The notes under the pieces are model-generated. The model was not told where the DNA came from. It saw only the letters and a program-made list of their open reading frames with translations, and made no database searches. Shown here piece by piece: positions 4,234 to 37,751 of a stretch of DNA of 64,000 bases (its first letter is position 1; every line of letters begins with the position of its first letter). Origin of the DNA: Thermoanaerobaculia bacterium (GTDB lineage Bacteria; Acidobacteriota; Thermoanaerobaculia; Gp7-AA8). Both the position numbers and the translations under genes were made by a program. The stretch lies in the NCBI GenBank assembly GCA_035999335.1, contig DASYGV010000175.1, positions 10,807 through 74,806 on the forward strand, given 5' to 3'.

Positions 4234-7200
4234 ATGCAAAAACTTGCCGAAATCTGCGTCCGCCGCCCCGTCTTCGCGACAGTGATCATCCTCGCCCTCG
4301 TGGTGGTCGGCGCGTTCTCGTACTTCAAGCTGGGCGTCGATCGTTTTCCCAACGTCGAATTCCCGTTCGTCATCGTCACGACAGTGCTGCCGGGCGCGGC
4401 GCCTGAGGAAATCGAGACCGAGCTGACCGACAAGATCGAGGAATCGGTCAATACCATCAGCGGCATCGACGAGCTGACGTCGTTCTCGTCCGAGAACGTG
4501 TCGGTGGTCATGATCAGCTTCACGCTGGAGAAGAACCGCGACGTCGCCGCGCAGGAAGTGCGCGACAAGGTCTCGACCATCCTCGGCGATCTCCCGCAAG
4601 ACGCCGAGCCGCCCATCATCCAGAGCTTCGACCCGGGCGCGATTCCGGTCGTGACCATCGCCGTCTCCGGTCCCGGCTCGCAGCGCGACATCTCCGAATA
4701 CGTCGACAAGAACCTCCGCCGCCGTCTCGAGACCGTGTACGGCGTCGGCCAGGTGCTGGTCATCGGCGCGCGTCCGCGGCAGATCAACGTCGTCGTCGAC
4801 AACGCGAAGCTCGCCGCGCAAGGACTCACCGCCGCGCAAGTCGTCAGCGCGCTGCAGTCGCAGAACATTCAGATCCCGGGCGGCAAGGTCGAGCAGGGCG
4901 TGCGCGACCTGACGCTGCGCACGTACGGGCGCGTCAGCTCGCCGGAGTCGTTCGGCAACATCCCGATCGCGAACGTGGGCGGCACGGCGATCCGGGTCCG
5001 CGATGTCGCGCGCATCGAGGACAGCATGTCCGAGGTGGAGTCGGCGGCGACGGTGAGCGGGAAGTCGGCGGTCGTGTTGATGGTCCGCAAGCAGTCGGGC
5101 ACGAACGCGATCCAGGTCGTCGAAGGCATCAAGGGACGCGTCGAGGAAGTGCGTCCGACGCTGCCGGCCGGCTACAAGCTCGACGTCATCCGCGATCAGT
5201 CGGAGTTCGTCCTCGCCGCGGTCGGAGCGGTGAAGGAACATCTGATCCTCGGATCGATCTTCGCGGCGCTGGTGGTTTGGCTGTTCCTCTCGTCGCCTCG
5301 CTTTCTCACCGTGATCGCGATGCTGGCATCGACGCTCGCGTTCTACTTCCTGCTGTGGGGACACAGCTTGCCGGTGCCGCGCGCGATCGCAGTGCCGCTG
5401 GCGTTGATCATCGGCATCGGGATGTTCTTCTATTTCGCCAGGAAGTCGCGGCCGACGCTCATCGCCGCGGTGGCGATCCCGAGCTCGCTCATCGCCACGT
5501 TCGCGGCGATGCAGTACATGGGCTTCACGCTCAACGTCATCACTCTGCTCGCGCTGACGTTGGCGGTGGGCATCGTCATCGACGACGCGGTGGTCGTGCT
5601 CGAGAACATCTTCCGGCACATGGAAGAGAAAAACATGAGTCCCGCCGAGGCGGCGGTGGCGGGGACGAAGGAAGTCGGCCTTGCGGTCATGGCGACCTCG
5701 ATGTCGCTGATCATCGTCTTTCTCCCGGTCGCGTTCATGGCCGGCATCGTCGGACGCTTCATGTACTCGTTCGGCGTAACCATGGCGTTCTCGATCGCGG
5801 TGTCGCTGCTGGTGTCGTTCACGCTCACGCCGATGATGGCCGCGCGCTACCTGCGCCGCGAGGACCTCAATCACGAGGGCGGCAGCACGCGCGAGAAGGG
5901 CTTCTACGCGGTCATCGAGCGGGGCTACATGGCCATGCTCGACTGGTCGATGGCTCATCGCTGGGTGATCGTCGTGATGATGCTGCTGGTCCTGTTCTCC
6001 ACGGGCCCGCTGTTCACGGTCGTCGATAAAACGTTCCTTCCGTACGACGACGAAGGCCAGTTCGCGATCACGGTGCGCGCGCCGGAGGGCGCGAGCGTCT
6101 CCTCGACTTCCACGATCGCGGAGTCGATCGCGTCTCGCGCGCGCAAGCTGAAGGGCGTGACGAACACGGTCGTCACGATCGGCGACGATCCGCAGCAGAC
6201 GCTCAATCTCGCAACGGTGTACGTCAAGCTCGGGCCGGCAGACGGGCGCGAGAATCAGTACGAGATCATGGACCGCGTCCGCACGGAGGTCCTCCCACAG
6301 TACCAGCGTCTCAATCTACGCACGACCGTCGCGCCTGTGAACGAGTTCGGCGGCGGAACGGATGCGGAGGTCATGTTCTGGATCGGCGGTCCCGATCTCG
6401 AGCAGCTCGACAAGTACGCGCGCCAGCTCACGGACGCGATCAAGGACCCGAAGCTCGGCACGACGGACGTCGACACGAACTTCATCGTCGGCAAGCCGGA
6501 GCTGGCCGTGCGCATCGACCGCGACAAGGCCACGGACCTCGGCGTCCGCGTGCAGGACCTGGCCGCGACGCTGAACGTGCTGGTCGGCGGACAGCAGGCG
6601 ACGAGCTACTACGAAGGCGGCGAGGAGTACGAGGTGCACGTGCGCGCCGAGGAGAGCTCGCGCAATACCGTGGCGGCTATTCAGCAGATCGAAGTGCCGT
6701 CGTCGACGGGCGCGAACGTGAAGCTGAACGATCTCGTGAAGCTCGAGGAAGGCAGTGGGCCGTCGGTCGTCAATCGCTACAACCGCCGGCGCATGGTCAT
6801 GGTGCTGGCGAACATGCAGCCAGGCCATTCGTCGCAGGCGGTCATGGATCTGCTGCAGCGGAAGGCGAAGGAGCTGAACATGCCGGCGTCGTATTCGGCG
6901 GGTTTCACCGGGCGCGCGCAGGAGCAGCAGAAAGCGGGCGTCAACTTCATGCTCGCGTTCGTGCTGTCGATCATCTTCATGTACCTGATCCTGGCCGCGC
7001 AGTTCGAGAGCTGGGTGCATCCGATCACGATCCTGTTGTCGCTGCCGATGACCGTGCCGTTCGCGCTGCTGTCGCTGGTGCTGCTGAATGAGTCGGTGAA
7101 CATCTTCTCGGCCCTCGGCATCGTGGTGCTGTTCGGGATCGTGAAGAAGAACTCGATCCTGCAGGTCGACCACACGAATCAGCTCCGCGAGCGCGGCATG

Positions 7201-18885: not shown

Positions 18886-20705
18886 AGACTTCGATGATCA
18901 TCGCTGCACGAGAGGTGCGGGAAAAGGCGCGGCTATTCGTCATCTGCGCGGGGCTCTCGCTCGTTCCGTTCGCAGCCACCCTGCTGCCCGGCGCGCGAGG
19001 GCAGAGCGCGGACGTAATCGCGATCGTCGGCGGATTCCTTTCCGCAATCCTCGGCCTTGGGATCGCTGTGACGTTCGGTGCGTCGACCATCGTTCGCGAT
19101 CTCGCCGAGCGGCGGATGTCGTTCTACTTCACGAGGCCGGTGAGCGCGCCGGCGATCTGGATCGGCAAGGCCGCGGCGGGATTGTTCATCAGTCTCGCTT
19201 GCTTCGCGATCATCGCCACGCCGTCGGCACTCGCGGCGCGGAAGGCATGGGCCACGCAGTGGCTCGGCGACATCGAGCCGCTCTCCGTTGCCGCGCTCGC
19301 GATCGTCGTGCTGTTCTTCCTGAGCCACACGATGAGCACGATCATCCGTTCACGTTCGCCGCTGCTCGCGCTCGACTTCCTCTTTGCGATCGCTGCCGTC
19401 GCGGCGCTGTATCTGATCGCGCGCCCGATGCTCATCGGCGCTGCGACGGACCTCGCGCGCATCGTGTTGACCGCGATCGGGATCGCGGTCGTGCTCGTGC
19501 TCGCGATCGCGCCGGTGTGGCAGCTCGCGAACGGGCGGAGCGACATCCGCCGCAGCCACGCGGCGCTGATGCGTTTTCTCTGGCCGTCGATCGCGATCGT
19601 GCTGTTGATCGCGGGCGGTATCGTGGCCTGGGTCATTCAGGTGTCGCCCGCGGACATCGTGGTCCGGTATGTCGGTCAGCCGCCGCGCGGAACCGCGGCG
19701 ATCGTGACGGGACGAGCGCCGCGGGCCGTCGACTACCACGCGACGTTCGTCATCGACCGCGCGAGCGGCGCTTCCAAGCGGATGGGCACGCCGCCTTGGT
19801 GGGGAGCGCATTTCTCGGACGACGGGCGCGTGCTCGTGTGGCTGCAGCCGGTGGGGACGTTTTCACTCCAGGGTGTGGAGTTGCACACACTGAACGGTGC
19901 AACCGGCATCGTCATCCCGCTGTCGTCTTCCATCGTCCTGTCGGGCGACGGTGCGCGAGTTGCGATCACGAATGGAAAGCTACTCGCGGTCCACGAGCTG
20001 GCGACGGGCAAGCTCCTCGCGTCGGCGGCTGGACTCGATTCGCGCGCGAGACATCAGGTCTTCTTCCTGACGCCGGACGTTGTTCGCGTGTTCGAGTATC
20101 AGCAACAACTTCGCACGCCGACGCCGCTGCGGATCTTCGAGCTCGACATTCGCGCGCGCTCGATCCGCAAGACGGGCGAGCGGATGCTCGTGACGACGCG
20201 GCAGGCGGTGTCGGTCTCCGGAGACGGCGCGCGGATGTTCGTCCGCGGGGCGAACGTCATCGCCGACGGGCGTACCGGCCAGACGATCGCGGAGATCGCG
20301 GCGTCGGACGTGTCTTCGTCAGCGATGCTGTTCGACGGAAGCGTCGCGCTGGTTTCGTACGGTCGCGGCGTGCCGCATCTCCGCACGTACGATCGCGACG
20401 GAGCACCGCGGCACGACGTGGCGTTTCCGAACGTGCGCAGCGTCTGGATTGCCGGCGAGATCGAGAACGGCAAGTTGATCCTCACCGTGCATGGCCGCAC
20501 GATGTGCGTCGTCGATCTCGCCAGCGGTTCGATCGAGCAGAGGCTCGAGAATGTGAGGGGACCGATGCCGCACTGGTCCACCGACCCACGGCTCATTCGT
20601 TATGCGGCCGATCAGGAGTTTGTCGCCGTCGACAAGAACGGGAAGCTGATCGTCTGGAAAAACGAAGGGCGGGCCTCAGCCCGCCCTCTGTTGTCATCGC
20701 GGTGA
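18882..20705 (+). CDS. ABC-2-type membrane permease-like protein with C-terminal beta-propeller-like domain
   Basis: The GTG start overlaps the ATPase stop (GTGA). About 6 hydrophobic helices are followed by repeated SGDGARV / DGR strands. The tail NEGRASARPLLSSR is encoded by a REP-like hairpin. Confidence 0.75.
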   Translation: MKTSMIIAAREVREKARLFVICAGLSLVPFAATLLPGARGQSADVIAIVGGFLSAILGLGIAVTFGASTIVRDLAERRMSFYFTRPVSAPAIWIGKAAAGLFISLACFAIIATPSALAARKAWATQWLGDIEPLSVAALAIVVLFFLSHTMSTIIRSRSPLLALDFLFAIAAVAALYLIARPMLIGAATDLARIVLTAIGIAVVLVLAIAPVWQLANGRSDIRRSHAALMRFLWPSIAIVLLIAGGIVAWVIQVSPADIVVRYVGQPPRGTAAIVTGRAPRAVDYHATFVIDRASGASKRMGTPPWWGAHFSDDGRVLVWLQPVGTFSLQGVELHTLNGATGIVIPLSSSIVLSGDGARVAITNGKLLAVHELATGKLLASAAGLDSRARHQVFFLTPDVVRVFEYQQQLRTPTPLRIFELDIRARSIRKTGERMLVTTRQAVSVSGDGARMFVRGANVIADGRTGQTIAEIAASDVSSSAMLFDGSVALVSYGRGVPHLRTYDRDGAPRHDVAFPNVRSVWIAGEIENGKLILTVHGRTMCVVDLASGSIEQRLENVRGPMPHWSTDPRLIRYAADQEFVAVDKNGKLIVWKNEGRASARPLLSSR

Positions 20706-20711
20706 GCCGCG

Positions 20712-21083
20712 TTACGTGGTTTTCGTTTTCGCGAGGCCGGCCTTCGCGCTCTCGACGAGGACGGTGAAGGCGGCGGCGTCGCGGACAGCGATGTCGGCCA
20801 GGATCTTGCGGTCCAGCGTGTTCCCCGCGGCCTTCAGGCCGGCGATGAACGTCGAGTAGGACATTCCGTTGAGGCGGGCGGCAGCGTTGATGCGGGCGAT
20901 CCATAGCGTGCGGAAATCACCCTTGCGGTCCTTGCGGCCGGTGAAGGCGGCGTTGAGCGCCTTGTCGACGGCCTGCTGCGCGATTCGGTTCCCGCGCGAC
21001 CTCATCCCGTAGAAGCCCTTGGCGAGCTTCAGGATTTTAGTGCGGCGGTTCTTTCTTTTTGGGCCTCGTTTGACTCTCGGCAT
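20712..21083 (-). CDS. rplT: 50S ribosomal protein L20
   Basis: [26 protein letters not shown]... Confidence 0.97.
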
Positions 21084-21156
21084 TGCGTTCTCCTCGTTTT
21101 CCTTTCATGAGCGGACGGGCCAGGAGTAGTGGTGCCTCGTCTCGCTCGGTTGTTCA

Positions 21157-21183
21157 GTGCTGGGTGCACTCAGCACTCAGCAC
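21157..21183. repeat. GTGCTGA-type hairpin (family 1, copy c) between rpmI and rplT
   Basis: gtgctgggtgc-actca-gcactcagcac. Confidence 0.75.
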
Positions 21184-21189
21184 CCCGTA

Positions 21190-21387
21190 CTATTTGTACG
21201 GGATCATGCGGGCCACGGTCTTCGCGTTCGCGCTCGAGACCTCGACCTCGCCGGCGAGCCTCGACTTCCGGCCCGGCGATTTCTTGGTCAGGATGTGCGA
21301 ATGGAAGGCGTGATTCCGCTGAAGCTTTCCGCTTCCGGTCTTCTTGAACCGTTTGGCGGCTCCGCGGTGCGTCTTCATCTTAGGCAT
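21190..21387 (-). CDS. rpmI: 50S ribosomal protein L35
   Basis: [22 protein letters not shown]... Confidence 0.97.
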
Positions 21388-21439
21388 AGAAATCCCCTCT
21401 AAAGCTTGGCTGGTAACCGGCTGAGGCGGTTGATCATTC

Positions 21440-21994
21440 CTACTTCGCGGGAGCGATGACCACCGACATCCGGTTCCCCTGCAAGTCGGGGTGCTGGTTC
21501 TCGGAGACGCCGAACTCCTTCACTTCCTCGAGGAGACGGTCGAGCACGGCCTTGCCGAGCTCCATGTGCGTCATCTCGCGGCCGCGGAAGCGGACGATGG
21601 CCTTGACCTTGTCGCCGTGCTGGAGGAAGCGCACGACATGGTTCTTCTTGAAGTCGAAGTCATGTTCGTCGATGCGGGGGCGGAACTGCACCTCCTTGAC
21701 GATGATGACCTTCTGCTTCTTCCGGGCCTCGCTCTCCTTCTTCTTCTTCTCGAAGAGGAACTTGCCGTAATCCATGATCTTGCAGACCGGCGGTGTCGCG
21801 GTCGGCGAGATCTCCACGAGATCGAGGTCCTTCTCGCGCGCCATCTCCTGGGCCTGCGCGATGGGGACGATTCCGACCTGTTTTCCTTCGGAATCGATCA
21901 GGCGCACCTCGGGGTGGCGGATCAGGTCATTGATGCGGTTTTCGGGTTCTACCGGTCGGCGGTCGAATCGTGGGTTACGGCGCGGCGGAAAAAT
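21440..21994 (-). CDS. infC: Translation initiation factor IF-3, ATT start codon
   Basis: The track ORF starts at an internal GTG (21907). In-frame upstream sequence reads ...[16 protein letters not shown] back to ATT at 21994. That ATT is preceded by AGGAGG at a 7-nt spacing and by an in-frame TAG, with no canonical start in between. Confidence 0.9.
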
Positions 21995-22088
21995 ACGATG
22001 TTCCTCCTAATTTGGGTCGCACAATGTACGGATAAAGGCGACGAGACGTCAAGCCGACGCGTCGTCGCTCGATTTCCGACGATTTTCC

Positions 22089-24008
22089 TCAGAAACTCAG
22101 TGAGCGGCTCGCAATCAAAGCGTTCGCCTGCCCGATCAATTCCTCGATGCTCAGAGCCCCCTGGTCCCCGCCGGTCCGCTTGCGCAGGCTGACGGTGCCG
22201 CTCGACGCTTCTTTTTCCCCGACGATCAGCATGAACGGGATCTTGCGGAGCTGGGCGTTGCGGATCTTGGCGCCGAGCTTTTCGTTGCTCGCGTCGACCT
22301 CGACGCGCACGCCGGCGGCGCGCAGTCTTGCGCCGACTTCGTTCCCGTAGTCGGTGAACTTCTCCGACAGCGGCAACACGCTCGCCTGCACCGGTGCCAG
22401 CCAGAACGGGAACGCGCCGGCGAAGTGCTCGATGAGGATGGCGATGAGTCGCTCGAACGAGCCGTAGATCGCGCGATGCAGGACGGCCGGGCGATGCTCC
22501 GCGTTGTCCTCGCCGACGTAAGTCAGGTCGAACCGCTCCGGCGCGTTGTAGTCGAGCTGGATGGTGCCGAGCTGCCACTTGCGGCCGATGGAGTCGGAAA
22601 CATCGAAGTCGATCTTGGGACCGTAGAACGCGCCTTCACCTTCCTTGACCTCGTACGGCCGGCCGAGGGCCTCGAGCGCGCGGCGAAGGAACTCCTCGGC
22701 GCGATCCCAAAGCGCGTCGTCGCCGATGCGCTGCGGCGGCCGGGTCGAGAACTTCGCGGTGTACTCGAGGCCGAAGGTCGAGTAGACCTCGTCGAGGAAC
22801 GCGACGAAGCGGCGCACCTCGTCGGTGACCTGGCTCTCCATGCAGATGATGTGTGCGTCGTCCTGCGCGAACTGCCGCACGCGGGTCAGGCCACCGAGGG
22901 TTCCCGACGCTTCGTTGCGGTGCAGGACGTCCTGGGTGCTCAGCCGCAGCGGCAGGTCGCGGTAGCTGTGCTTCTTCATCCCGTAGTAGAGGTAATGCGA
23001 AGGGCAGTTCATCGGCTTGAGCGAGAAATCGTGCTCGCCGGTCTCGCTGTCCAGCACGAGGAACATGTTCTCGCGGTACTTGCCCCAGTGGCCGCTGATC
23101 TCCCACAGCCCCTTGTTGAAGAGGAGCGGGGTCTTGATCTCGACGTACCCGTTCGCGCGCGCCATCTCGCGCATGTACTGCGAGAGGGTCTGGTAGACGG
23201 TGGTGCCGTTCGGGGTCCAGAACGCCGCCCCTGGAGCGAAAGGATGGAAGTTGAAGAGGTCGAGCTCCTTGCCGAGCTTGCGGTGATCGCGCGCCTTCGC
23301 TTCCTCGACCTGCTTGAGGTGCGCCTCGAGCTGTTCCTTGTCCGCCCACGCGGTGCCGTAGATGCGCTGCAGCATTGCGTTGCGGTTGTCGCCGCGCCAG
23401 TACGCGCCGGCGACGCTGGTCAATTTGAAAGCGCCGAGGCGGCCGGTGGAGGGGACGTGCGGTCCGCGGCAGAGATCGAACCATTCGCCCTGGCGATAGA
23501 CCGACAGCGCCTCATCGCCGGGGATGGCCTTGATGATCTCGACCTTGTACTGCTCGCCGAGCTTCTCGAAGGTGGCGATGGCCTCGTCGCGCGACCACTC
23601 CTCGCGCTGCACGGGCAGGTCGCGCTTCACGATCTCATGCATCTTCTCTTCGATGCGGCGGAGGTCTTCGTCGGTGAATGGGCGATCGGTGCCGAAGTCG
23701 TAGAAGAAGCCGTTCTCGATCACCGGACCGATGGTCACCTGAGTGCCGGGGAAGAGCTCCTGGACGGCCATGGCCATCAGGTGAGCGGTGGAGTGGCGGA
23801 TGGTGTCGATGCCCGCCTCGCTCTTCGGCGTGACGATCTCGACTTTCGCGCCGTCGGGCACGGGCGCGTAGACGTCGACGACTTTGCCGTTGACCTTGCC
23901 GGCGATTGCGTCTTTCGCGAGACGCTTGCCGATCGACGCGGCGACGTCGGCCACGGTCGCGTTCGCGGCGACCTCTCGTACGGAACCATCGGGGAGCTGG
24001 ATGTTCAT
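22089..24008 (-). CDS. thrS: Threonine-tRNA ligase
   Basis: TGS domain N-terminus, editing-domain motif HSTAHLMA, class II motifs, 639 aa. It is followed by infC-rpmI-rplT in the classical operon order. Confidence 0.97.
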
Positions 24009-24019
24009 GTCGACCTCGT

Positions 24020-24053
24020 AAAAACAGAAAAGACAGGGCTTGTGGGCCCTGTC
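24020..24053 (-). terminator. Intrinsic terminator 11 nt upstream of the thrS ATG (candidate attenuator)
   Basis: Minus strand: GACAGGGC-ccacaa-GCCCTGTC-TTTTCTGTTTTT, then acGAGGtcgacATG (thrS). Confidence 0.7.
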
Positions 24054-24087
24054 TCGTGATCATGTTGTCAGGATTGCAAACGGACGA

Positions 24088-24153
24088 TCAGCGGCAGGGC
24101 GACGAGCTCGGGCTCGTCGTTCGCGTCTGTGCGGTCGTCGTCGTTCGGCTCAT
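24088..24153 (-). CDS. Putative Thr-rich leader peptide (21 aa) of a thrS attenuator
   Basis: atg agc cga acg acg acg acc gca cag acg cga acg acg agc ccg agc tcg tcg ccc tgc cgc tga = MSRTTTTAQTRTTSPSSSPCR*. Seven of 21 codons are Thr. A TATACT hexamer lies 11 nt upstream (24165-24170). Confidence 0.5.
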   Translation of the reverse strand: MSRTTTTAQTRTTSPSSSPCR

Positions 24154-24253
24154 AAAGGTCGCGGAGTATAGCACGGCGGGAGAGTTCCGAATTCCACGTA
24201 CAGACATCTAATAACCTCCGTGTTACTCTGCGCGCGGTCCGAGGTTTATCCAC

Positions 24254-26371
24254 ATGTACGTCCTGGCAACCGTTGTCGCACTCCGTCTGCTGAACCCGAA
24301 CGACCTTGCGGTCCACGCCACGCTGCGCTGTGGCGAAGACGCGCGGTGGGCCGTGCGTCTCGAGGCACGCGAGCTCCGCGATGTCGACGGCTGCGCGTCC
24401 GCCGAGGCGTTCGTTCCGCTCGTGGCGATCGAGACGTCGTTCGATGGCGAGCGTGAGTGGCAGCACGTCCTCGATGCCGATGCCGAGTGCGGCACCGCTT
24501 CGATGGCCGTGCCGCTCTTCGCGTGCCGCAACGGCGTTGCCACCGCGTACGTCGCTCCCGTCGATGGCGCCACGTACGCGTGGAACGCGGAAGGGGCGGT
24601 CATCACGGCAGGTGCGAACACGAGTCGCGTGCTCGTGCAACTCGGCGACGCCGCGACCGCGAAGCTGACTTGCGTCATCACCACTGAGGAGTGCACGAAG
24701 AGCGCGACGGGCGTCATCGGCGTGCGCGAGCCGATCGTCGTGAAGAACTTCACCGTTCCCGCGACCGCCGATGCGAACCAGCCGCTGACCATCACCTGGA
24801 GCTATGAGCCCGGCCGCGAGCCGGCGACGCAGATGCTCACCGGCGACCTCTTCGCGCAGCCGGTGACGCTCACGCCTCAACAACGGAGCTACACGACCAC
24901 GCCGCAGAACGGCGGCGCGCGGAGCGTCGAGCTGCGCGCGAGCTACGGGCGCGCGATCCACGTCACCCCACTGCCGAAGAAGCGCCGCCGCTCCGTCGGC
25001 GGAGGCGTGACGGCCACGGAGTGTCCGTCCGCGCTGGCCACCGCGCGCATCGACGTGCGCGGCTGCGTTTCGCGCGAGCCGGTCGTCCAGGCTCCCTTCG
25101 ACGTCGCGGCAGGCTCCACGTTCGAAGCCTTGATTCCCGACCTGGACGATGATGACAAGGTCCAGTGGAGCGTCGACAACGGCACGATCTCCTATCTCTC
25201 GCCGTTCGGCGAGCGCGCGCTCGTCGTTGCCGGCATCAGCGGGAAGACCGACGTTCATGCCCGCGTCGAGCGTTCGGCAGGTTGCTTCGCCAACGGCTCG
25301 GCCGCGGTGGGGATCATCCGCCCGGCGGGGCAATGCGCGATCGCTCCCTCTGCGGCGCTGACACTCGTCTCCACCAATTGCAACGGCGCGCTCGTTCGCG
25401 CGAGCTTCACCGGCACACCTCCCTTCGCGGGCCGGTGGTCCGATGGCACAGAATTCCGCACGTCCGCGGACTATGCGCATCACGAGTTCAGTACGACCGG
25501 TACGTACGGCATGACGGAATTCCACGACGGGGCCTGTTTCGGCGGGACGACCGGCTCACCGCAGGTCACGATGCTCCGTCCGACGGTGAAGCTCACCGGC
25601 GTCGAAGGATGCGCGGGCGGAGCGTTGACCGCGACGTTCAGCGGCAACCCGCCGTTCAGCGGGACGTGGTCGGATGGGCAGAGCTTTACGACGTCGAATG
25701 CGACGCTCACGCGCACGGTCGGCGAGGGCACGTGGTCCGTTCAGAACCTCACCGACGTCACGTGCTCGACGGCGAAGGCGAGCAGCAACAACGTCGCGTT
25801 TGGGCCGCGTCCGCGCGCGTGGATCCCGAAGCCCGCGACCTGCTATCTGCCGAGTGTCGAGCTCGTCGGTTATGTCCCGCTGGAGACCGCCGGAGGGAAC
25901 GCGCCGTACGTGTACGAGTTCACCGATGGCGCTGTGTTCACGACGAATTCCGCGAAGACGTACCGCGAAGTGCGGAACACTTCGGATGTGCAGAATTATG
26001 AGCTGAAGCGCGTGACCGCAGCGGGGTGTGAGGCGACGTTGGAAAACCGCGTCGTCACGGTCCATCGGCGGCACCCGGCGACGATCCCCGGCGGCCGCCG
26101 CGTCGAGTGCACTCAAACCGACATTACCGTTCCGTCGATCTGGGAGCCCTCGCTCGGCGCTCAAATCAACTGGGGCGTTTGGGGCTCCGGATTCAAACCT
26201 GCCGCACCTGTCATCGTGTCGGGAGAGCGGACGACGGCGATCACGTTCCGCTCCAAGATCCCCGGCACGGCATACCTCACCGTCGAAACGAGGTGGCCGG
26301 ATGGACTCTGTTACTACCGCGCACCGACTCAGGACGTCGAGTTTGTCGTTTGCAACTCGGCGGAGAAGTAA
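24254..26371 (+). CDS. Cys-rich repeat protein, paralog 1 (Ig-like / SprB-repeat-like modules)
   Basis: 705 aa. Modules have the form C..G.L.A.F.G.PPF.G.WSDG...GTY....D..C. It shares an N-terminal region of about 430 aa with the next gene. No classical signal peptide. Confidence 0.8.
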   Translation: MYVLATVVALRLLNPNDLAVHATLRCGEDARWAVRLEARELRDVDGCASAEAFVPLVAIETSFDGEREWQHVLDADAECGTASMAVPLFACRNGVATAYVAPVDGATYAWNAEGAVITAGANTSRVLVQLGDAATAKLTCVITTEECTKSATGVIGVREPIVVKNFTVPATADANQPLTITWSYEPGREPATQMLTGDLFAQPVTLTPQQRSYTTTPQNGGARSVELRASYGRAIHVTPLPKKRRRSVGGGVTATECPSALATARIDVRGCVSREPVVQAPFDVAAGSTFEALIPDLDDDDKVQWSVDNGTISYLSPFGERALVVAGISGKTDVHARVERSAGCFANGSAAVGIIRPAGQCAIAPSAALTLVSTNCNGALVRASFTGTPPFAGRWSDGTEFRTSADYAHHEFSTTGTYGMTEFHDGACFGGTTGSPQVTMLRPTVKLTGVEGCAGGALTATFSGNPPFSGTWSDGQSFTTSNATLTRTVGEGTWSVQNLTDVTCSTAKASSNNVAFGPRPRAWIPKPATCYLPSVELVGYVPLETAGGNAPYVYEFTDGAVFTTNSAKTYREVRNTSDVQNYELKRVTAAGCEATLENRVVTVHRRHPATIPGGRRVECTQTDITVPSIWEPSLGAQINWGVWGSGFKPAAPVIVSGERTTAITFRSKIPGTAYLTVETRWPDGLCYYRAPTQDVEFVVCNSAEK

Positions 26372-26380
26372 ATTTCAATC

Positions 26381-28756
26381 ATGACCCTAATCGCTGCCGT
26401 CGTTGCTCTCCGCCTGATGAATCCGAACGACGTCGCCCTCGAGGCGACGCTGCGCTGTGGCGACGAGTCGCGTATGTTGCGGCTCGAGGCTCGTGAGGTG
26501 CGTGACGTCGACTCGTGCACGTCGGCGTCGTCATCGCAGCCGCTGGTCGCGCTCGAGACCTCGATGGAGAACGGCGTCGAATGGCAGACGGCCCTCGAGC
26601 CTGACGCCGCGTGCGCGATCCCGTCGATGTACGCGCCGCTCTTCGCGTGTCGAAACGGCGCCGCCACCGCGTACGTCGCACCGGTGGAAGGCGCGAGCTA
26701 CGAGTGGAGCGCCGAAGGCGCGGCGATCCTCGGCGGAGCGAACACCAACCGCGTGGCACTGCGGATTACCGGCGACACGAGCGTGCAGCTTCGCTGCACG
26801 GTTCGAACGAGCGAGTGCGCCGCGACGACCGGATCGGGCGTCATTCAGATCCGCGAGCCGATCGCGGTCCGCGAATTCAAAGTTCCGGCGACGACGAACG
26901 CGAACGAGCCGCTGACCATCACCTGGTCGTATCTGCCCGGGCGCGAGCCGCAGTCGCAGATCCTCACTGGCGATCTCTTTCCCCAGCCGGTCCCGCTGAA
27001 CACCAGTCAACGGAGCTACACCTTCACCCCACAGACCGGCGGCGCGCGCACGGCCGAGCTGCGCGCGAGCTACGCGCGCGCCATCACTGTTGCTCCGCGC
27101 TCGAAGAAGCGTCGCCGCTCCTCCGCCAGCGGCGCGCCCAACGCATCCGAATGCCCGGCCGCGCTGGCGACGGCGAAGGTCGAAGTGCGCGGCTGCGTCG
27201 AGTCGGAGCCGGTCCTCGACGCGCCGTTCGACGCGGCGGCAGGCTCGACGTTCGAGGTTGCCGTCGACATCGATGACGGGCAGAAGGTCGAATGGAGCGT
27301 CGAGAACGGCAGCGTGCAGTCGGTCTCGCCGTTCTTCCACGAAGCGACGATCGTCGCCGGAACGAGCGGCGTGACCACGGTGACTGCCCGCGTCGAGCGG
27401 AAGGCGGGATGCTTTGCCACCGCATCGGCACCGGTCGCATTGATTCTCCCCGCGAGTCAATGCGCCGTTCCTCCCGTCGCGACGCTGTCGAATCTGTCCG
27501 TCAACTGCGATCAGGCGATCATGAACGTCTCCTTTACCGGCAACGGACCTTTCGCCGGTGAGTGGTCGGATGGCACACCGTTCCGCTCGAGCACGAACAC
27601 GGGTCACGTCTTCACGAAACCGGGCACGTTCACCATTCACAACTTCCGCGACTCCGCCTGCTTCGGGACGGTCAACGGCGCGAAGGCGGTCGAGCAGTTC
27701 CGGCCGGTCGTTCTCCTCAACTCCACCGACAGCTGCAACGGTACGAATCTCGTGGCGACGTTCAAAGGTGTGCCGCCGTTCGTGGGATCGTGGTACGACG
27801 GCGAGCCCATCTCGACGAGCGATACGACCATTTCACGGACGGTGAAGGGGCTCGAGTATTCGCACCAAAATCGCTGGCTTGCCTCAGTCTCTGACAGCGT
27901 GTGCTCACAAAGATCCTACAGCCGCTTCATTGAGATTCCGGAGACGCCCACGCTCATCTATGGCGGCTACGCTTGCCAGACCGATCCTCTCGCAAAAACT
28001 TGGATCTCGGCCTATTTCAAGGGCGGCCGCATCGGGCCATTCAGCGTGGAATGGGCGGATGGCGTCAAGGCCACTTCGACGTCGATCTATCAGAGCCCCC
28101 AGCGTTCGGTGGGACCGATCACCGCGGCGTCGGCTCCATTCGAGATCGTGCGCGCGACCATTGGTGAATGTGAGCTCGATGATGTCGCTGGCCTCGTCAC
28201 AACGCTGTTGAACCGCCCCTCCGCGATGATGCAGACGCCACCGACGACGAACGGGTGCACGGGCGAGCCTCTCACCGCAACGCTTTCGCGATCGCCGCTG
28301 CCGGAAGCAACGATCGAGTGGGTGTTCTCCACCAATGCGCGTGTCATCTCCGGACAGGGAACTCCGACGATCACGTTCACGGTCGATTCGCCGCTGAAGT
28401 TCGATCTCGCCGTCGTGACGAAATATCCCGACGGCCGCTGCAGCAACTATCCCTGGACCACTCCGAAAGTGACGTACACCATCGCGCAGCGCCGCACGGT
28501 GAAGAACATCCGGCTCGAGCCGTCGACGATCCAGGCGGGTGAGAGGGCCACGATCACGTGGGAGCTATTCGAGAATCCCGGCGTGAGCGTGACCACCACG
28601 CAAGCGCGCAAGCTCGAATTGCATCAGGCGGAGGAATGCTGCACCGCGTATTTCGTCGACACGACCGGGCCGGGAACGGTGCCGATCTACATCGATTGGT
28701 ACGACCCCTGTCGCGGATCACAGCGTGAGACGCTGACGCTGACCATCGCGCCGTAG
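26381..28756 (+). CDS. Cys-rich repeat protein, paralog 2
   Basis: 791 aa. The N-terminus MTLIAAVVALRLMNPNDVALEATLRCGDE parallels MYVLATVVALRLLNPNDLAVHATLRCGED of paralog 1. A KKRRRS motif is conserved in both. Confidence 0.8.
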   Translation: MTLIAAVVALRLMNPNDVALEATLRCGDESRMLRLEAREVRDVDSCTSASSSQPLVALETSMENGVEWQTALEPDAACAIPSMYAPLFACRNGAATAYVAPVEGASYEWSAEGAAILGGANTNRVALRITGDTSVQLRCTVRTSECAATTGSGVIQIREPIAVREFKVPATTNANEPLTITWSYLPGREPQSQILTGDLFPQPVPLNTSQRSYTFTPQTGGARTAELRASYARAITVAPRSKKRRRSSASGAPNASECPAALATAKVEVRGCVESEPVLDAPFDAAAGSTFEVAVDIDDGQKVEWSVENGSVQSVSPFFHEATIVAGTSGVTTVTARVERKAGCFATASAPVALILPASQCAVPPVATLSNLSVNCDQAIMNVSFTGNGPFAGEWSDGTPFRSSTNTGHVFTKPGTFTIHNFRDSACFGTVNGAKAVEQFRPVVLLNSTDSCNGTNLVATFKGVPPFVGSWYDGEPISTSDTTISRTVKGLEYSHQNRWLASVSDSVCSQRSYSRFIEIPETPTLIYGGYACQTDPLAKTWISAYFKGGRIGPFSVEWADGVKATSTSIYQSPQRSVGPITAASAPFEIVRATIGECELDDVAGLVTTLLNRPSAMMQTPPTTNGCTGEPLTATLSRSPLPEATIEWVFSTNARVISGQGTPTITFTVDSPLKFDLAVVTKYPDGRCSNYPWTTPKVTYTIAQRRTVKNIRLEPSTIQAGERATITWELFENPGVSVTTTQARKLELHQAEECCTAYFVDTTGPGTVPIYIDWYDPCRGSQRETLTLTIAP

Positions 28757-36578: not shown

Positions 36579-36595
36579 AGTTTATGGCGTTTTGT

Positions 36596-36723
36596 CTAGG
36601 AGTGCGGTGGCGAGGGTGGTGGGTGGCGGGAAGCCACCGCTCTGGTAGGGTGGGTGGTGGCGCTCCGAACGTACCAGAGCGGTGGCTCTCCGCCGCCCAC
36701 CCGCCTCGCCACCGCACTCCTAG
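36596..36723. repeat. MITE-like palindromic element bounded by CTAG (family 2, copy b)
   Basis: CTAGGAGTGCGGTGGCGAGG...ccaccgctctggta...taccagagcggtgg...CCTCGCCACCGCACTCCTAG. The right CTAG supplies the TAG stop of the minus-strand phosphotransferase gene. Confidence 0.85.
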
Positions 36724-37751
36724 ATCAGTCGCCTGCAACGCCAGTGCAGGTAGTTCACGAGGATCCAGAAACGGCGGAAGCGCGGGTTGCGCGTCTGCTT
36801 GTGGTGATAGCGGTAGTAGATCTGCTGCGCGATCACCGACAGTCGGAAGAGGCCGTAGACCTCGTAAAACGTCCAGTGTTCGGGAGTGAAGCCCGTCTTC
36901 GACGAGTAGTACTCGACGACCTCGGCGCGCGTGAGCATGCCCGGCGTATGCGTCGGCTGACGGCGCGTCCAGCGCGCCATGAAGTCGTCGTCGGCCTGAA
37001 TCCAGTACGCGAGCGCGTTGCCGAGGTCCATCCACGGATCGCCGAGCGTGGCCAGCTCCCAGTCGAGCACGCCGATGATGCGCGTCGGATCGTCGCGGTC
37101 GAGCACGATGTTGTCGAAACGAAAATCGTTGTGCGTGATGCAGATTCTCTCCGCCGGCGGGATGTTGTCCGCGAGCCACTGCATCACGCGCGTGCCCTTC
37201 GCGACGTTCCATGTGCGCGCGTTGCGATAGCGGTCGCTCCATCCTTCGATCTGCCGCCGCGTATAGCCCGCGCCCTTCGCGAGGTGCTCGAGACCCGCCG
37301 CGACGTGATCGACCTGATGCAGCGCGACGAACGTGTCGAGAAACTTCAGACAGAGCTCGCGCACTTTCTCCGGAGGCAGGTCCACGCCGAGCTCGCGCCG
37401 CGGAATGATTCCGTCGAGACGTTCCATGACGTAGAACTCAGCGCCGGTCACGGACTCGTCCGCGCAGTGCGCGATCATCGTCGGCACGTACGGGAACACG
37501 GGCTTCAGCGCGCGCTGCAATCGGAACTCGCGTCCCATGTCATGCGCCGACTTCGCCTTCGTCCCCGCCGGCGGCCGCCGCAGGATCAGATCGTGCGATT
37601 CGTACTGCAGCCGATAGGTCCAGTTCGACGCGCCGCCGGAAAATTGAGTGATGGCCGGCGCGCCGCGAAGATCGGGGATCTGCGTTCGTAGCCACGCGTC
37701 CACGTTGGGGACGTTGAGCTCTTCACCGGGACTGACAGAGCCCTCGTTCAT
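36720..37751 (-). CDS. Phosphotransferase (APH/choline kinase-like) family protein
   Basis: ITHNDFRFDNIVLD catalytic loop and VLDWELATLGDP. It overlaps the upstream acyl-CoA dehydrogenase gene by 4 nt (ACAD10/11-like pairing). Confidence 0.85.
   Translation of the reverse strand: MNEGSVSPGEELNVPNVDAWLRTQIPDLRGAPAITQFSGGASNWTYRLQYESHDLILRRPPAGTKAKSAHDMGREFRLQRALKPVFPYVPTMIAHCADESVTGAEFYVMERLDGIIPRRELGVDLPPEKVRELCLKFLDTFVALHQVDHVAAGLEHLAKGAGYTRRQIEGWSDRYRNARTWNVAKGTRVMQWLADNIPPAERICITHNDFRFDNIVLDRDDPTRIIGVLDWELATLGDPWMDLGNALAYWIQADDDFMARWTRRQPTHTPGMLTRAEVVEYYSSKTGFTPEHWTFYEVYGLFRLSVIAQQIYYRYHHKQTRNPRFRRFWILVNYLHWRCRRLI

Follow-up and report, generated by a model that had tools for sequence, protein, structure and literature searches.

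Known leaders of synthetase genes and the thrS locus

Most of what is understood about how aminoacyl-tRNA synthetases are regulated comes from Escherichia coli, through operator mimicry and the pheM leader, and from the T-boxes of the Firmicutes. To our knowledge, almost nothing is known of synthetase regulation in the Acidobacteriota, a phylum that is abundant in soil and mostly uncultured, and no element of the type considered here has been described from it. Our subject is the leader of thrS, the gene for threonyl-tRNA synthetase (ThrRS), in a Thermoanaerobaculia bacterium (Acidobacteriota; assembly GCA_035999335.1, contig DASYGV010000175.1); the window, to which all positions refer, is the whole 64,000-nt stretch of this contig that was analysed. 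Sequence comparison and RNA folding make it highly probable that this leader is a ribosome-mediated transcription attenuator, which would tie thrS to the supply of charged tRNA-Thr. The mechanism is that of a known, classical attenuator; what is new is the gene and the phylum, and for the gene a thrL-thrS arrangement has already been proposed in Streptomyces lividans, on a weaker case.

The textbook precedent for leader-peptide attenuation of a synthetase operon is pheM-pheST of E. coli. Both systems have a leader open reading frame (ORF) with codons for the cognate amino acid and an antiterminator/terminator pair directly before the synthetase gene, and in pheM a low level of charged tRNA leads to stalling of the ribosome, read-through and a greater output of synthetase. 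The two differ in amino acid (Phe as against Thr) and in phylum and share no sequence similarity; furthermore, the Acidobacteriota element is without a Shine-Dalgarno sequence and has its ATG only 9 to 13 nt after the -10 box. The E. coli thrL and trpL leaders provide the four-segment layout: segment 1 carries the regulatory codons, segment 2 contains or adjoins the stop codon, segments 2 and 3 pair as the antiterminator and segments 3 and 4 as the terminator. In the window, 68 nt separate the stop codon from the end of the U-run, and the corresponding distance in the E. coli trp leader is close to this value. However, thrL and trpL control biosynthetic operons, thrL also senses Ile, and the Acidobacteriota element, unlike either of them, has its stop codon inside the antiterminator strand.

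Other systems share the regulated gene but not the mechanism. The T-box of Bacillus subtilis thrS likewise serves homeostasis of tRNA-Thr charging through a choice between terminator and antiterminator, but it senses uncharged tRNA directly, without a ribosome. The translational operator of E. coli thrS has the same gene and the same homeostatic aim, but is a mimic of the anticodon arm that is bound by ThrRS and acts on the initiation of translation.

Leader peptides before synthetase genes have also been reported outside the Proteobacteria. In the bacilli, a premature-terminator screen predicted a His leader before hisS/hisZ paralogues, where it replaces a T-box (Naville & Gautheret 2010, PMC2965389); this is likewise a predicted leader-peptide attenuator before a synthetase-family gene, though for another amino acid, gene and phylum. 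RNA sequencing of S. lividans TK24 revealed a leaderless 18-codon thrL before thrS, read as a threonine-dependent attenuator, together with alaL-alaS, trpL2-trpS and leuL2-leuS (PMC8079986, Table 4). The thrL peptide, MKRVRPFLETTPGFVPAR, has two Thr residues and is associated with one hairpin and no U-run (PMC8079986). Both loci thus have a leaderless-type short ORF directly before thrS, but the sequences are unrelated, and the Acidobacteriota element is richer in Thr, with 7-9 residues, has a canonical terminator and an explicit antiterminator, and is conserved in many genomes. The searchable literature on thrS leader peptides or attenuators (the surveys Vitreschak 2004 and Lopatovskaya 2010 lie outside it) yielded only work on the B. 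subtilis T-box and the S. lividans paper.

Anatomy and conservation of the leader

The element is housed in the 245-bp gap between thrS, on the minus strand, and a divergent plus-strand gene whose ATG is at 24254. Its parts are as follows.

24165..24173, minus strand: extended -10 promoter element TGCTATACT, with TATACT at 24170-24165 preceded by TGC
24088..24153, minus strand: leader ORF MSRTTTTAQTRTTSPSSSPCR, 21 codons plus stop (ATG 24153-24151, TGA 24090-24088)
24133..24144, minus strand: Thr run 1, codons 4-7 (ACG ACG ACG ACC), putative regulatory codons and also "region 1"
24115..24126, minus strand: Thr cluster 2, codons 10-13 (ACG CGA ACG ACG), inside the invariant block CAGACGCGAACGACGAGC
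24100..24119, minus strand: hairpin P1, CGACGAGC-ccga-GCTCGTCG, 8 bp, inside the leader ORF
24084..24100, minus strand: antiterminator 5' strand ("region 2") GCCCTGCCGCTGATCGT, running through codons 19-21 and the TGA stop to 6 nt past it
24046..24063, minus strand: antiterminator 3' strand ("region 3") ATGATCA-cgaga-CAGGGC, overlapping the terminator 5' arm
24020..24055, minus strand: intrinsic terminator ("regions 3:4") GAGACAGGGC-ccacaa-GCCCTGTCTT then TTCTGTTTTT, a 10-bp GC-rich stem, from a consensus scan and minimum-energy folds
24014..24017, minus strand: thrS Shine-Dalgarno sequence GAGG, 5 nt before the ATG, directly after the terminator T-run, conserved in the alignment
22089..24008, minus strand: thrS, the regulated gene, 639 aa, a complete ThrRS with the Pfam domains TGS, tRNA_SAD, tRNA-synt_2b and HGTP_anticodon

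Relatives were collected in two ways. Scans for ThrS in genome and metagenome contigs gave three close loci (L001, L002 and L081) and about 155 distant ones, mostly from other phyla, and further relatives came from the DNA upstream of 10 ThrS clusters and of 2 clusters of a second clade of Thermoanaerobaculia, grouped around L002. In a protein search, more than 100 clusters carrying the annotation Thermoanaerobaculia (Acidobacteriota), from metagenome-assembled genomes (MAGs), shared 83-92% identity with the window ThrS. All other distinct thrS upstream regions sampled (n = 12) carried at least part of the element, and promoter, ORF, antiterminator and terminator were complete in 11 distinct relatives: 10 leaders whose ThrS is 80-92% identical to that of the window, and L175 of the second clade. 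These relatives share one order of parts: TGNTATACT comes first, then the ATG of an ORF of 20-22 codons with the internal hairpin (absent in L001), followed by the two antiterminator strands, the U-run terminator and, after GAGG, thrS itself. Neither the flanking genes nor the DNA ahead of the -10 box is shared among the loci, so that it is the leader specifically that is conserved. An nhmmer search with a leader profile found exactly one copy in the window and zero copies in the loci outside Thermoanaerobaculia.

The promoter motif T(G/A)N-TATACT is invariant or nearly so across 12 aligned leaders, and the sequence upstream of the box is unrelated. The leader ATG follows the box by 11 nt in the window, by 9-13 nt in the relatives and by 17 nt in L001; from its predicted start, the transcript would have a very short 5' untranslated region or none. 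The leader peptides of the relatives are listed here.

L081: MFRTTTTIGQTRTTSTSSSPCR
L161: MLRTTTTAQTRTTSTPMLAPCR
L162: MHWMTTTGQTRTTSTAMLAPCR
L164: MLRTTTGQTRTTSTSPLVPCR
L165: MLRMTTTGQTRTTSTPPLAPCR
L167: MLQTTTTGRTRTTSTPPLAPCR
L170: MTRPTTTGQTRTWGFCLAPCR
L171: MNRTTTTGQTRTTSLRSLPCR
L172: MTRTATTRQTRTTSSPLVSCR
L173: MLHTTTTGQTRTTSTTLAPCR
L175: MTRTTTTAQTRTGRTPAPCR
L001: MPIMISLTRTTSPTPAPPCW

Thr accounts for 7 of the 21 leader codons in the window and for 4-9 of the 20-22 codons in the relatives; at a Thr frequency of 5-8%, the probability of at least seven Thr in 20 codons is about 3e-5 to 6e-4. In run 1 the codons of 12 leaders depart from ACG 16 times at position 3 (ACC, ACT or ACA) and 4 times at positions 1 and 2 together, counts which are not phylogenetically independent, and codon 2, next to the run, varies freely. 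As judged from the alignments, this pattern of variation is one of selection for threonine codons and not for a nucleotide string. Thr cluster 2 is almost invariant, with ACG-CGA-ACG present in 12 of 12 leaders and the following ACG in 10 of 12; these codons are doubly constrained, as regulatory codons and as the 5' arm of hairpin P1. Start and stop codons are invariant and all indels in the leader ORF are multiples of 3 (alignments A1 and A2). The conserved AUG and stop, the frame-preserving indels and the synonymous variation of the Thr codons argue that the leader ORF is read. A 39-codon in-frame ORF starting from the ATG at 24207 was also considered as the leader, and was rejected because its start precedes the conserved -10 box and the added codons lack conservation.

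Of the 12 leaders folded, 11 are predicted to form hairpin P1 (-9 to -14 kcal/mol), L001 being the one without it, and a 5-bp version is present in L175, which was examined separately. The hairpin is kept despite two-sided changes that alter the peptide in L170 (CGUGGGGC/GCCUCGCG) and L175 (CGGGA/UCCCG); these compensatory changes were taken directly from the folds of the individual sequences, as MAFFT misaligns a one-base bulge. A pausing or timing role is probable for P1, which would also form the core of the structure made by regions 1 and 2.

The antiterminator is built from GCCCTG at 24100-24095, TGATC at 24090-24086 and GATCA at 24061-24057, all on the minus strand. As RNA, GCCCUGYC and UGAUCGU pair with AUGAUCA...GACAGGGC to give a predicted helix of 14-19 pairs that includes the stop codon, with the consensus CCC-UGY-CGN-UGA-UC opposite (A/C)GAUCA-N2-5-GACAGGGC. 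In 12 sequences 83.9% of the alignment cells assigned to this helix are paired, a proportion that falls to 30-46% if the partner strand is displaced by 1-3 columns. In L001 the helix is formed from a different sequence (CCCUGU/ACAGGG plus UGG/CCA), and in L081 the terminator stem is shifted, with matching changes on both arms and on the leader strand. The conserved C-terminal Pro-Cys-Arg-stop of the peptides is explained by these codons forming the antiterminator 5' strand, which is a constraint on the RNA. Region 2 lies entirely inside the footprint of a ribosome that has the stop codon in its A site. The core of the terminator runs from GACAGGGC (24053-24046) through the loop ccacaa and GCCCTGTC (24039-24032) to the T-run, which ends at 24020; the 11-nt spacer acgaggtcgac, containing GAGG, then leads to the thrS ATG at 24008. 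A stem of 8-11 bp with a T-run is present in all complete relatives.

Much of this anatomy had been proposed in an earlier note made from the window sequence. The 21-codon ORF with seven Thr codons (24153-24088), the terminator at 24053-24020 ending 11 nt before the thrS ATG and the TATACT hexamer 11 nt before the leader ATG were all found where the note had placed them, and its other positions are likewise correct; the terminator stem extends to 10 pairs, and the TGC in front of the hexamer makes it an extended -10 element. The perfect 8-bp hairpin within the ORF also stands, and it persists in the relatives, two of which keep it through compensatory changes. The note had further suggested that GCCCTG, extended by a TGATC/GATCA pairing, serves as antiterminator, an idea which held up, with a helix larger than proposed and inclusive of the stop codon.

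The predicted switch and its alternatives

The 162-nt leader folds at z = -4.7 relative to dinucleotide shuffles, and structures containing the antiterminator (-21 to -34 kcal/mol) and the terminator (-17 to -29 kcal/mol) have similar ranges of predicted energy. The effect of the ribosome was modelled in 12 leaders by masked folding, in which a 27-nt footprint was held single-stranded. A footprint at the stop codon (A site) gave the full terminator and zero antiterminator pairs in 12 of 12. With the footprint on either Thr cluster and the RNA extending up to the terminator loop, the antiterminator formed with 14-19 pairs (-19 to -32 kcal/mol), again in 12 of 12. For 9 of the 12 leaders, the unmasked minimum-energy fold at full length includes pairs between regions 1 and 2 (6-17 of them); in the ribosome-free full-length RNA of most leaders, Thr run 1, ACGACGAC, pairs with GUCGUUGAUCGUC around P1, and the terminator forms. 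As Thr run 1 pairs with the antiterminator 5' strand, the leader has the makings of a full four-segment attenuator. Three relatives adopt the antiterminator without any constraint, within the minimum-energy fold of their complete leader.

What we infer from these features is where transcription starts, that the ORF is translated, that transcripts terminate in vivo and that the system responds to threonine. Transcription from the extended -10 promoter would begin a few nucleotides before the leader AUG, and a ribosome would translate the 21-codon leader. When Thr-tRNA is plentiful, the ribosome would arrive at the UGA and its footprint would hide region 2, GCCCUGCCGCUGAUCGU, so that region 3 (AUGAUCA...CAGGGC) could pair with region 4, GCCCUGUCUU, and polymerase would stop in the U-run before the thrS ribosome-binding site. 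When Thr-tRNA is scarce, the ribosome would stall at codons 4-7 or 10-13 and leave region 2 free to pair with newly transcribed region 3; the terminator would then come too late, and transcription would read through into thrS and possibly infC-rpmI-rplT. If translation is absent, Thr run 1 may pair with region 2 around P1, with formation of the terminator.

Several observations weigh against this account. The evidence for this uncultured lineage is computational throughout, being made up of sequence, comparison and folding. No Shine-Dalgarno sequence was found before the leader ORF, and initiation would need a leaderless or short-leader mode. A count of covariation in the antiterminator gave no excess over a column-shuffle control in 12 sequences, a statistic which is uninformative because the helix is nearly invariant. 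Even with the Thr codons masked, the full-length equilibrium usually favours the terminator with a residual GAUC hairpin; for read-through the antiterminator must therefore be the first to form, by kinetic trapping, and kinetic control of this sort is usual for attenuators. The ribosome-free nascent RNA often folds the antiterminator in minimum-energy predictions, which makes the branch from no translation to termination uncertain.

A further difficulty comes from one sublineage, in which two members, L002 and L174, both on short metagenome contigs, have damaged elements. In L002 (100-162) the -10 box is joined straight to the terminator hairpin and U-run, without leader ORF or antiterminator; in L174 (870-1000) the leader is frameshifted and has fewer Thr codons, and the terminator loop and 3' arm are lost. 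Their clade-mate L175 carries an intact element. We read these versions as decay, or possibly as errors of assembly in short contigs; without decay or misassembly, the promoter and terminator of L002, lacking a leader, are hard to reconcile with a purely regulatory terminator. The L002 arrangement is also a reason for supposing that the hairpin is not conditional at all, but is a stabiliser of the mRNA, a partial terminator that sets a low, fixed level of expression, or a signal for the divergent gene, with an ORF of no regulatory role. The stability of the terminator at equilibrium points the same way. However, the hairpin cannot terminate an upstream gene because that gene is divergent (ATG 24254, plus strand), and L174, although close to L002, has decayed differently, which suggests a sublineage that is losing the element. 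A fixed hairpin would also leave unexplained both the copy of the terminator 3' arm at the leader stop in the window and the 11 other complete leaders, and the conserved Thr codons. We regard it as very improbable.

An alternative that keeps the ORF in control of the terminator is that the signal is an arrest peptide ending in (A/S)PCR-stop, or general translation stress, in the manner of TnaC, ErmCL or a stress-sensing upstream ORF. The C-terminal P-C-R-stop is as well conserved as the Thr codons, and in the model the outcome turns on whether a ribosome occupies the stop. But the P-C-R codons are the antiterminator 5' strand (CCC-UGY-CGN-UGA-UC), their third positions track the pairing, and L001 has P-C-W with the helix retained; moreover, arrest at the stop would favour the terminator, and there is no obvious inducing signal. 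The Thr codons, with their variation biased to position 3, specify the cognate amino acid of ThrRS, and enrichment for Thr before thrS recurs in unrelated lineages. This alternative is improbable, if slightly less so than a fixed hairpin. The least probable of these explanations, in our view, is that ThrRS or another RNA-binding protein selects between terminator and antiterminator, as in the E. coli thrS operator or the TRAP and PyrR systems, and that the ORF is incidental. It is true that E. coli ThrRS regulates its own gene through its own leader (PMC2965389) and that the block CAGACGCGAACGACGAGC is conserved in nucleotides even at third positions, beyond the needs of coding. That block is accounted for, however, by its being both the P1 5' arm and regulatory codons, while the hairpin loops vary (ccacaa, ccaaaa, uucg, ucc g and gcaa) and contain no anticodon-like NGU triplet, and the arguments given above, from indels that keep the frame, from the AUG and stop and from Thr codons that vary synonymously, favour an ORF that is read. 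An operator of the E. coli type, mimicking the tRNA-Thr anticodon arm, was rejected separately, as the loops differ among relatives and there is no NGU in a 7-nt loop.

Attenuation by ribosome stalling at the Thr codons thus remains the favoured explanation, and most of what the earlier note had reasoned about the switch was borne out. The masked folds behaved as it expected of a ribosome whose position chooses between terminator and antiterminator, in all 12 leaders at both positions of the model, and the alternative structure proved competitive: masking of the Thr codons in every case made the antiterminator the minimum-energy fold predicted for nascent RNA. Of the conservation that the note had proposed to test in an alignment of relatives, the Thr run, the stop position and the terminator are conserved, but covariation, counted in the antiterminator, did not rise above the shuffle control. 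Its failure to see a T-box agrees with the Rfam scans, which found no T-box (RF00230), Thr_leader (RF00506) or other family at the leader (window at the gathering threshold; 23900-24350 at E <= 10), no family at the thrS leaders of nine related loci and no T-box in L162 or L001. The thrL/pheM type of logic that it invoked is supported and can be extended to a four-segment attenuator. The note's list of known thrS controls, T-box or translational operator, was incomplete, given the thrL reported in S. lividans (PMC8079986) and the unrelated betaproteobacterial Thr leaders found here.

Other thrS leaders, neighbouring genes and significance

We examined thrS loci of many phyla, 151 in all, for a short ORF ahead of the gene with 3 or more identical residues out of 5 and a terminator behind it. 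Such ORFs were found for Thr at 16 loci and for any other residue at 6 or fewer, an enrichment specific to Thr. Twelve of the loci share a leader, M-T-P-R-T-T/S-(T), which is unrelated to the Thermoanaerobaculia element. The named organisms among them all belong to the Betaproteobacteria (Rhodoferax, Polaromonas, Giesbergeria and Burkholderiales, of Comamonadaceae type), and the rest are metagenome contigs.

L034, L035, L042, L044, L048, L106, L108, L110, L111, L114, L123 and L131: MTPRTT(T) leader about 125-190 nt upstream of thrS

The ORF of this family starts ATG ACA CCG CGA ACT ACN and is preceded by a conserved AAGAGCGAGAAAGGCA box. Its terminator, GCGCGG-loop-CCGCGC plus a U-run, lies about 30-60 nt before thrS, and the CCGCG of codons 3-4 equals the terminator 3' arm. 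Rfam gave no match to the family, and the searchable literature, bounded as above, held nothing on it. Control of thrS by a Thr leader therefore appears, from these sequences, to have arisen more than once. Distinct Thr-rich leaders, each with a downstream terminator, were also seen in L071, a Burkholderiales MAG (MLTTARTTLNTHTV, at -130..-85 relative to thrS), and in L092 (MRLRGTTGATTTTTVRTTARGARRTG, at -166..-85 relative to thrS), a metagenome contig that encodes a ThrS with 57% identity to the one in the window.

The remainder of the locus has the features listed below, all on the minus strand.

20665..21907, minus strand: infC, rpmI and rplT, downstream of thrS (Pfam IF3, L35 and L20)
20688-20665, minus strand: terminator-like site at the operon end, from a consensus scan
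22023-22052, minus strand: promoter-like sigma-70 match TTGACG-18-TACATT, in the thrS 3' end and thrS-infC spacer (21907-22089), upstream of infC

The gene order thrS-infC-rpmI-rplT is common to the relatives, and infC-rpmI-rplT are possibly co-regulated with thrS if an internal promoter is absent. The infC ORF as listed has a GTG start and is without the first ~10 positions of the IF3_N profile; in the relatives, gene callers assign 134-195 aa to infC. Its sequence suggests that infC has a non-canonical start codon and an internal promoter, both of which are known for infC of E. coli. Divergent from thrS are two tandem plus-strand ORFs, at 24254-26371 (705 aa) and 26381-28756 (791 aa), each with a weak PKD-like match near residues 86-153 and no other Pfam match; by sequence, their products are probably paralogous secreted or surface proteins.

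Elsewhere in the window, at 36586-36733, is an imperfect inverted repeat with 69-nt arms that are 83% complementary and a 10-nt spacer, within which ARAGORN calls a 94-nt "tRNA-Thr(ggt)" at 36612-36705. The Rfam tRNA model had no match in this repeat, where only eukaryotic miRNA-precursor models matched, weakly and on both strands, and the tRNA call is on that account almost certainly false. The contig of L001 carries two convergent copies of Acido-Lenti-1 (RF01687, ~54 bits each), at 6658-6703 on the minus strand and 6810-6855 on the plus strand, ~1.7-1.9 kb downstream of the thrS stop, and the 5' end of a 16S rRNA gene at the contig edge (1-125, minus strand).

More broadly, we would propose, tentatively and with somewhat more doubt than conviction, that attenuation by Thr leaders is a widespread and unrecognised form of thrS control, invented repeatedly in Gram-negative lineages without T-boxes, and that the terminated leader RNA of ~135 nt or its peptide possibly acts in trans. 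A trans-acting role of a leader RNA and peptide has its precedent in rnTrpL and peTrpL of Sinorhizobium. If this is true, the Thermoanaerobaculia element and the MTPRTT(T) family would be two independent origins, and L071 and L092 hint at more. The parallel with MTPRTT(T) suggests repeated evolution of such leaders, and also that leaders have been missed by annotation pipelines. As a compact part of ~150 nt, the Thermoanaerobaculia element could be moved to a model host, where it may serve as a sensor of Thr-tRNA. It would add thrS to the synthetase genes under leader-peptide control, with an anatomy much clearer than that of the one published thrL-thrS case. For the Acidobacteriota, the thrS element represents a concrete candidate for a regulatory RNA and, as predicted from sequence and folding models, would bring to this phylum leader-peptide attenuation with initiation that is apparently of the leaderless type.

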